A DNA stretch of 64,000 bases from a virus (Duplodnaviria > Heunggongvirae > Uroviricota > Caudoviricetes): the IMG/VR virus record IMGVR_UViG_2671180984_000014; one strand, 5' to 3'. The notes under the pieces are model-generated. The model was not told where the DNA came from, ran no database searches, and saw only the letters and a list, made by a program, of their open reading frames with translations. The first letter of the stretch is position 1. Each line of letters opens with the position of its first letter. Both the position numbers and the translations under genes were made by a program. Positions 47,568-47,633 of the stretch are shown here, one piece after another.

Positions 47568-47584
47568 ATTGCTCTAATAATTCC
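47568..47584 (+). promoter_or_regulatory. C1-operator-like site (ATTGCTCTAATAATTCC)
   Basis: 13-nt left-half match. Confidence 0.45.
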
Positions 47585-47592
47585 ATATTTTT

Positions 47593-47625
47593 AAAACGTG
47601 ATGTACACTCATCACGTTTTTTATT
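47593..47625 (+). terminator. rho-independent terminator
   Basis: Stem ACGTGATG / CATCACGT, loop TACACT, then TTTTTT. Confidence 0.65.
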
Positions 47626-47633
47626 AGAGCAAT
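47617..47633 (-). promoter_or_regulatory. C1-operator-like site in inverted orientation
   Basis: Reverse complement reads ATTGCTCTAATAAAAAA; forms an inverted pair with 47568-47584 around the terminator. Confidence 0.45.

Follow-up and report, generated by a model that had tools for sequence, protein, structure and literature searches.

A 66-bp element upstream of pmgR in a P1-type phage-plasmid probably combines two facing C1 operators, a terminator and a promoter

What is the role of a short intergenic sequence in which one perfect inverted repeat is nested inside another? The sequence analysed here, a 64,000-nucleotide stretch of a Caudoviricetes virus (IMG/VR record IMGVR_UViG_2671180984_000014; hereafter the window), contains at positions 47568–47633 an element that reads, in order, ATTGCTCTAATAA-TTCCATATTTTT-AAAACGTGATG-TACACT-CATCACGTTTT-TTATTAGAGCAAT. 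The initial annotation described it as a C1-operator-like sequence and its minus-strand mirror bracketing a perfect stem-loop, and the repeat finder bears this out exactly. The outer arms (47568–47580, ATTGCTCTAATAA on the plus strand, and 47621–47633) measure 13 nt each, with 100% complementarity and 40 nt between them, and the inner arms (47593–47603 and 47610–47620) are 11 nt long, 100% complementary and separated by a loop of 6 nt. The interpretation that we regard as probable is that these 66 bp control pmgR-pmgS and combine two operators, a terminator and a promoter.

Judged by its sequence, the window is a P1-type phage-plasmid. The 1.6 kb surrounding the element share 99.8% identity with phage RCS47 and 98.9% with P1 and P7, the 66-bp core is the commonest variant among the P1-like contigs examined, and the window ends near pacA, with the c1 gene expected just beyond its end. 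All genes between approximately 43.9 and 50 kb of the window are on the plus strand. The element separates two operons, as had been suggested, with pmgN-pmgQ upstream and pmgR-pmgS downstream; the stop codon of pmgQ (47564–47566) ends 1 nt before the first arm. The P1 record (AF234172) lists the arms under the names OpmgRa and OpmgRb, formerly Op86a and Op86b, each a "monovalent" C1-controlled operator (82152–82168 and 82201–82217), and the P7 record names both sites Op(sht[a]) and Op(sht[b]) (84533–84549 and 84582–84598). The window shares with these records the sequence, the orientation and the position between pmgQ/hdmD and pmgR/shtA. Compared with the P1 reference the element itself shows no difference, whereas the pmgR leader differs in a few bases (CCAAAAGG in the window against CTACAAGG in P1). 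The proposal that the arms are C1 operators thus agrees with the annotated positions in both phages, and by this match they are Op86a and Op86b, the C1 operators controlling pmgR-pmgS. Because the arms are the operators annotated in the P1 and P7 records, the core of the finding is already known. A full-text literature search with Op86 and the other operator names returned nothing relevant. The features of the locus are collected in Table 1. In the record of phage vB_EcoM-Ro157c2YLVW (MH160767.1 / NC_050153.1) the pmgR homologue is labelled "L: RNA-directed RNA polymerase L", an obvious annotation error.

Table 1. Features of the pmgQ-pmgR-pmgS region (positions in the window)
Feature	Position	Strand	Basis
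pmgQ (hdmD in P7), at the end of the upstream transcription unit	46865–47566	+	ORF list; P1 and P7 annotation
C1 operator Op86a/OpmgRa, ATTGCTCTAATAATTCC	47568–47584	+	14/17 consensus matches, first 13 perfect; P1 annotation
PpmgR, predicted sigma-70 promoter as annotated in P1: -35 TTGCTC 47569–47574, -10 TAAAAC 47592–47597	47569–47597	+	P1 record
Alternative pmgR promoter (predicted): -35 TTCCAT 47581–47586 (weak), 17-bp spacer, -10 TACACT 47604–47609	47581–47609	+	Prediction
Hairpin AAAACGTGATG-TACACT-CATCACGTTTT, 11-bp stem, 6-nt loop	47593–47620	+	Folding, repeat finder, covariation
T-tract TTTTTTATT	47617–47625	+	Terminator U-tract (putative) and A/T tail of Op86b on the other strand
C1 operator Op86b/OpmgRb, ATTGCTCTAATAAAAAA	47617–47633	-	14/17 consensus matches, first 13 perfect; P1 and P7 annotation
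Shine-Dalgarno-like AAGGTG	47638–47643	+	Read from the sequence; 6–7 nt 5' of the pmgR ATG
pmgR (shtA in P7)	47648–47866	+	ORF list; P1 annotation; PMC9024508
pmgS (shtB in P7), 420 aa, second gene of the operon	47868–49130	+	ORF list; P1 and P7 annotation
Strong terminator-like hairpin with TTTTT, 3' of pmgS	49150–49178	+	11-bp stem, -17.6 kcal/mol

Phage P1 is reported to carry 22 C1 operators with the asymmetric 17-bp consensus ATTGCTCTAATAAATTT, and the corepressor Lxc strengthens the binding of C1 (PMC8546580). C1 is predicted to bind the copy studied here, although Op86a and Op86b agree with this consensus at only 14 of 17 positions, their mismatches being all located in the tail. The two sites are 32 bp apart, or 49 bp from centre to centre. 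They resemble the bivalent C1 operators of P1 (for example Oc1ab/Op99a,b) in presenting two opposed C1 sites at one promoter, but bivalent operators consist of two sites that overlap by several bases in one incomplete palindrome, whereas the Op86 sites lie apart and enclose the hairpin and a -10-like hexamer. The pair is accordingly not a bivalent operator.

Further evidence on recognition comes from a divergent lineage, L087 and L088, whose PmgR is 82–84% identical. In both members TTGTTC replaces TTGCTC in all three operators seen, namely the equivalents of Op86a, Op86b and Op88 (positions 2920–2985 and 5060 in L087, 2920–2985 and 5061 in L088). The same change at three separate sites fits recognition by one repressor; it suggests a shifted consensus of the C1 operator in this lineage and perhaps a shifted immunity specificity. 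We also considered the outer 13-bp arms as a stem formed in RNA. This candidate was rejected because terminated transcripts would stop before the 3' arm is synthesized; the sole covarying pair in these arms is the lineage-wide operator change, which is common to the third, unpaired operator.

Several other operators in the window deserve mention. The only other operator pair is found at 33481–33508, where two C1 operators overlap in the bivalent form, one with the perfect consensus on the plus strand and one reading ATTACACTAATAAATTT on the minus strand; from its position it is probably the ban operator Op72. The operator at 43944 is O26/Op82. The weakest-looking C1 site of the region is Oppp/Op83 (44851–44867, minus strand, CATGCACTAATTAATTT), which is absent from a search allowing 3 mismatches because it has 4 mismatches to the consensus. 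An operator-like site with 3 mismatches (ATTGCTCTAATGTATTG, 60258–60274) is located downstream of phd-doc and just 5' of a 150-aa ORF (60345–60797), presumably lpa, the late promoter activator, in view of its position.

PLSDB contains 687 plasmids with this region, and it occurs in 20 phage records as well, with more than 95% identity in nearly all cases. Divergent copies were obtained from Cronobacter phage JK004 (~70% DNA identity), from contigs with PmgR homologues (72–84% identical) and from a DNA pattern scan of IMG/VR, which also gave unrelated AT-rich matches that were discarded. Searches with PmgS yielded only two near-identical E. coli loci among species-representative genomes and 80 loci with 98–100% identity in IMG/VR. 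The resulting alignment comprises 24 distinct versions of the core, leaving out two rare 67-nt indel variants and the error-prone sequence L093. All 24 versions are 66 bp long and have both operators in convergent orientation. L093 (a contig of GCA_045575315.1) contains one additional base in Op86b (TTATTAGAAACAAT), and many of the genes around it are fragmented; we considered this insertion as a natural operator variant and rejected it as a probable sequencing error, given the number of broken genes in the assembly.

The initial annotation read the stem-loop as a terminator, and the structure has the form of an intrinsic one: a 7-bp core with 4 G-C pairs, followed, when counted from the core, by TTTTTTATT. 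The stem begins 27 nt past the stop codon of pmgQ, as expected for the end of a transcription unit. Pairing is conserved among the relatives. The arms of the core are CGTGATG/CATCACG in P1, ACATGGTG/CACCATGT in L089 and GCGTGGTG/CACCATGC in L088, while L094 forms a register-shifted stem, CGGCATG/CATGCCG. Over the 24 distinct sequences 96.2% of stem cells are paired, compared with 41–58% in slid controls. Compensatory changes occur at 3 stem pairs (for example G-C to A-U 6 times and A-U to G-C 6 times), and the plus-strand RNA has 22 G·U pairs and 10 mismatches (4 of them from the shifted L094) compared with 4 G·U pairs and 28 mismatches in the minus-strand RNA, although both the covariation and the G·U counts are drawn from related sequences and do not represent independent events. 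A further caveat is that single-step stem variants within the P1 population, as read from the variant list, keep plus-strand pairing in approximately 5–6 cases and break it in approximately 6, at best a modest excess. Columns 51–58 of the T-tract are invariant in the 24 distinct sequences, but since Op86b includes these very bases, their invariance does not speak for the terminator alone.

A window-wide scan for promoters and terminators flagged neither at this site; the terminator was overlooked because the scan counted the tail only after the longest possible stem. In a crude custom scan for hairpins followed by a T-tract, whose list includes some duplicate entries, the hairpin takes approximately position 17 of 134 candidates in the window, among other clean elements consisting of an A-tract, a stem and a U-tract. 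Rfam gave no family at E ≤ 1 for positions 47300–47900. The P1 GenBank record contains no terminator features in the ~17 kb inspected, and their absence at this site is therefore uninformative. We found no 3'-end or Term-seq data, and the P1 RNA-seq papers give gene-level values only. The hairpin 3' of pmgS (Table 1), which probably marks the end of the pmgR-pmgS operon, is likewise unannotated in the P1 record in spite of its textbook terminator form.

The third component, a promoter, is a point absent from the initial annotation: the element is first of all the promoter-operator region of pmgR-pmgS. Two positions of this promoter compete. The P1 record places the -10 box of PpmgR at TAAAAC (47592–47597), whereas the alternative places it at TACACT in the hairpin loop, with a predicted start at approximately 47616–47617. 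Among the sequences scored, the best sigma-70 match within 160 nt upstream of pmgR uses the loop hexamer as its -10 in 9 of 9. This hexamer (columns 37–42) is TACACT, TATCAT or TATTAT, with the matching -35 starting at column 14 or 15, and it keeps T1, A2 and T6 (TAnnnT) in all 24 distinct sequences. For P1 the candidates are nearly equal and both weak, at 6.4 for the loop hexamer and 5.2 for the annotated promoter; these values are approximate, as is the scoring matrix, which is based on consensus frequencies.

It is conceivable that the P1 annotation is complete as it stands, that is, PpmgR consists of TTGCTC and TAAAAC, Op86b is an auxiliary site at approximately +13 to +29, and the hairpin has no function. 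This explanation has the authority of the GenBank record, and TTGCTC serves likewise as the -35 at Op88/P2pmgT; TAAAAC is present in P1, L089 and L092, where the annotated promoter reaches the same score of 5.2, close to that of the alternative. In JK004, L087, L088 and L094, however, its -10 has decayed to TGAAGC or TGCGGC and the score falls to between -2.2 and -4.4, even though pmgR and both operators are conserved in these sequences. Moreover, compensatory changes and strand-specific wobble pairs are not expected of a sequence without function. We therefore consider the annotated arrangement rather unlikely, and the true -10 of pmgR is probably located in the terminator loop, with transcription expected to start near 47616.

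Each placement of an operator that the loop promoter would require has a counterpart in P1. At Oc1e/P4cre the operator ends where the -35 begins, which resembles the position of Op86a next to the -35, and at Oppp/PpmgN an inverted operator lies just 3' of the -10, which resembles the proposed placement of Op86b; at Oc1d/P1coi the operator fills the spacer. These three promoters have one operator position each, whereas at the pmgR promoter an operator upstream is joined by another one downstream. A known principle applies to rho-independent terminators overlapping a promoter that belongs to the following operon: the stem-loop and U-tract lie shortly past the stop codon, and the start is placed such that the promoter's own transcript does not contain the complete hairpin. 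What would distinguish the pmgR region from such cases is the candidate -10 in the loop itself and a U-tract that doubles as part of a repressor site.

The direction in which the hairpin might act is a separate question. The initial annotation had proposed, as its first option, a bidirectional terminator with repressor-binding arms and T-runs on both sides, which would halt transcription arriving from either side. The repressor-binding arms stand, as described above. The T-runs are indeed present on the plus strand on both sides of the stem (TTTTT at 47588–47592 and TTTTTT at 47617–47622), but the upstream run and the downstream T-tract belong to one strand, so that the former provides no U-tract for the minus strand, whose RNA past the stem reads only UUUU and then AAAAA (tail UUUUAAAAA; UUUUAAAAAUAU). 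Termination in both directions would be consistent with the perfect DNA palindrome between AAAA and TTTT, and in P1, as in the window, either strand folds at -13.4 kcal/mol. This symmetry is lost among the relatives: in six divergent lineages the hairpin has -11.4 to -16.5 kcal/mol on the plus strand compared with -5.8 to -11.0 on the minus strand, in keeping with the unequal numbers of G·U pairs and mismatches given above. Furthermore, the downstream side has neither a gene nor an annotated promoter on the minus strand that is directed towards the element. On the upstream side, the P1 record has PpmgN, which is controlled by C1 via Oppp, and the late promoter LPpmgL on the same strand, so that transcripts arrive from pmgQ. 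Bidirectionality is therefore very improbable, and the hairpin most likely works in one direction, as a rho-independent terminator closing the pmgL/pmgN...pmgQ unit, its termination activity being predicted from form and conservation.

A hairpin of the opposite polarity was noticed directly past Op88 (49709–49725, plus strand), within 49709–49780. This hairpin, ACATGCCGCaaggcGCGGCATGT, has its T-tract on the minus strand (49780–49758, -15.3 kcal/mol), even though every neighbouring gene is on the plus strand, and the P1 record notes a resemblance of this stretch to DNA found downstream of E. coli hsd loci.

Two more distant relatives offer a view of the arrangement outside the reach of the P1 operator. 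In the Citrobacter freundii plasmid NZ_CP056338.1 (L004, positions 2431–2474, and L217) PmgR is 34% identical to that of the window and the sequence upstream of pmgR has no P1-type operator. In the same place two copies of ACCATACTAATT converge, with 20 nt between them. The motif ACMATACTAATT, found at 7 mostly intergenic positions in 50 kb compared with 0.53 expected, is probably that element's own operator. The Pantoea plasmid NZ_CP034366.1 (L218, positions 2421–2476) has, again in the same place, a 20-nt inverted repeat, ACAAAAGATACTAAAATATG and CATATTTTAGTATCTTATGT, with 16 nt between the arms. In both plasmids the best -10-like hexamer is found between the convergent arms, which is the geometry proposed for the pmgR promoter of the window, and there is no hairpin. 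We propose ACMATACTAATT and, in Pantoea, AAGATACTAAAATATG, which form convergent pairs upstream of the pmgR homologue, as candidate operators of diverged C1-type repressors. As these relatives have an operator pair without a hairpin, the design can do without the terminator; a central -10 flanked by the convergent pair looks like the older arrangement, and the hairpin like an addition in the clade of P1 and JK004.

These observations lead us to the following model. Two asymmetric 17-bp operators for the monomeric immunity repressor C1, Op86a on the plus strand and Op86b on the minus strand, would face each other, with Op86a abutting or overlapping the -35 and Op86b covering approximately +1 to +17. 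In a lysogen, C1 aided by Lxc would occupy both operators and keep pmgR-pmgS silent. Transcripts that begin at PpmgN and LPpmgL and enter from pmgQ would meet the plus-strand RNA hairpin followed by UUUUUUAUU and end there, the U-tract of this terminator coinciding in the DNA with the A/T tail of Op86b. With the -10 in the hairpin loop, the pmgR transcript would start near the 3' end of the hairpin. Under either promoter model this transcript starts inside or after the hairpin and lacks the 5' arm, and would therefore not be terminated by its own leader. A fuller version of this reading treats the element as a nested module: the -10 is in the terminator loop, the U-tract is the operator tail, the annotated promoter is 12 bp off, the convergent design is old, and occupancy by C1 could tune termination and read-through from LPpmgL into pmgR-pmgS. 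We put this version forward tentatively, as somewhat less likely to be right in all its parts than to fail in one of them. Op86b might act as a roadblock, which is possible, whereas looping between C1 molecules at a distance of 49 bp between centres is unlikely.

One could also imagine that the nested palindrome acts as DNA, by extruding a cruciform, by binding a dimeric protein at the inner repeat, or through a C1-C1 loop or roadblock against read-through. The fixed operator spacing in all 24 distinct sequences would suit such a mechanism, and C1-mediated looping has been reported at the c1 locus of P1. Yet the inner repeat varies freely as long as plus-strand RNA pairing is kept, and the G·U pairs that maintain this pairing are mismatches in a DNA palindrome or cruciform, which argues against any reading at the DNA level. 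In addition, 49 bp is short for a protein-mediated loop, and the central -10-like hexamer is conserved in every lineage, even in those with no hairpin. We attach very little credence to a DNA-level role, compared with the combined control region described above.

The inverted-repeat element is real and not a product of chance. When up to 1 mismatch is allowed, the 64-kb window contains the 13-mer of the outer arm 9 times against 0.13 expected, and when up to 3 are allowed, it contains the 17-mer consensus 11 times against 0.31. The inner hairpin has a folding z of -4.9 (approximately -5) and the entire 66-mer, at -26.4 kcal/mol, a z of -10, with no shuffle as stable in either case. A fortuitous repeat in AT-rich intergenic DNA, for which the AT-richness of the motif alone speaks, is practically out of the question, as 0 of 100 shuffles reach either motif count, the folding is as extreme as stated, and the element is kept in hundreds of P1-like plasmids and in relatives that are only ~70% identical in DNA.

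Outside the biology of P1 the finding carries little weight, as the element was catalogued in the P1 and P7 annotations some twenty years ago. What is new is modest: pmgQ and pmgR are likely separated by a terminator that works one way, the -10 of PpmgR probably needs correcting, and the convergent layout recurs with other repeats in distant relatives. The gene pmgR is essential for head completion, its deletion leading to unjoined heads and tails (PMC9024508), and for this reason the position of its true promoter and its insulation from upstream transcription have practical value. These additions would be of use for the engineering of P1 and for the annotation of P1-like resistance plasmids, of which the 687 PLSDB records are examples.
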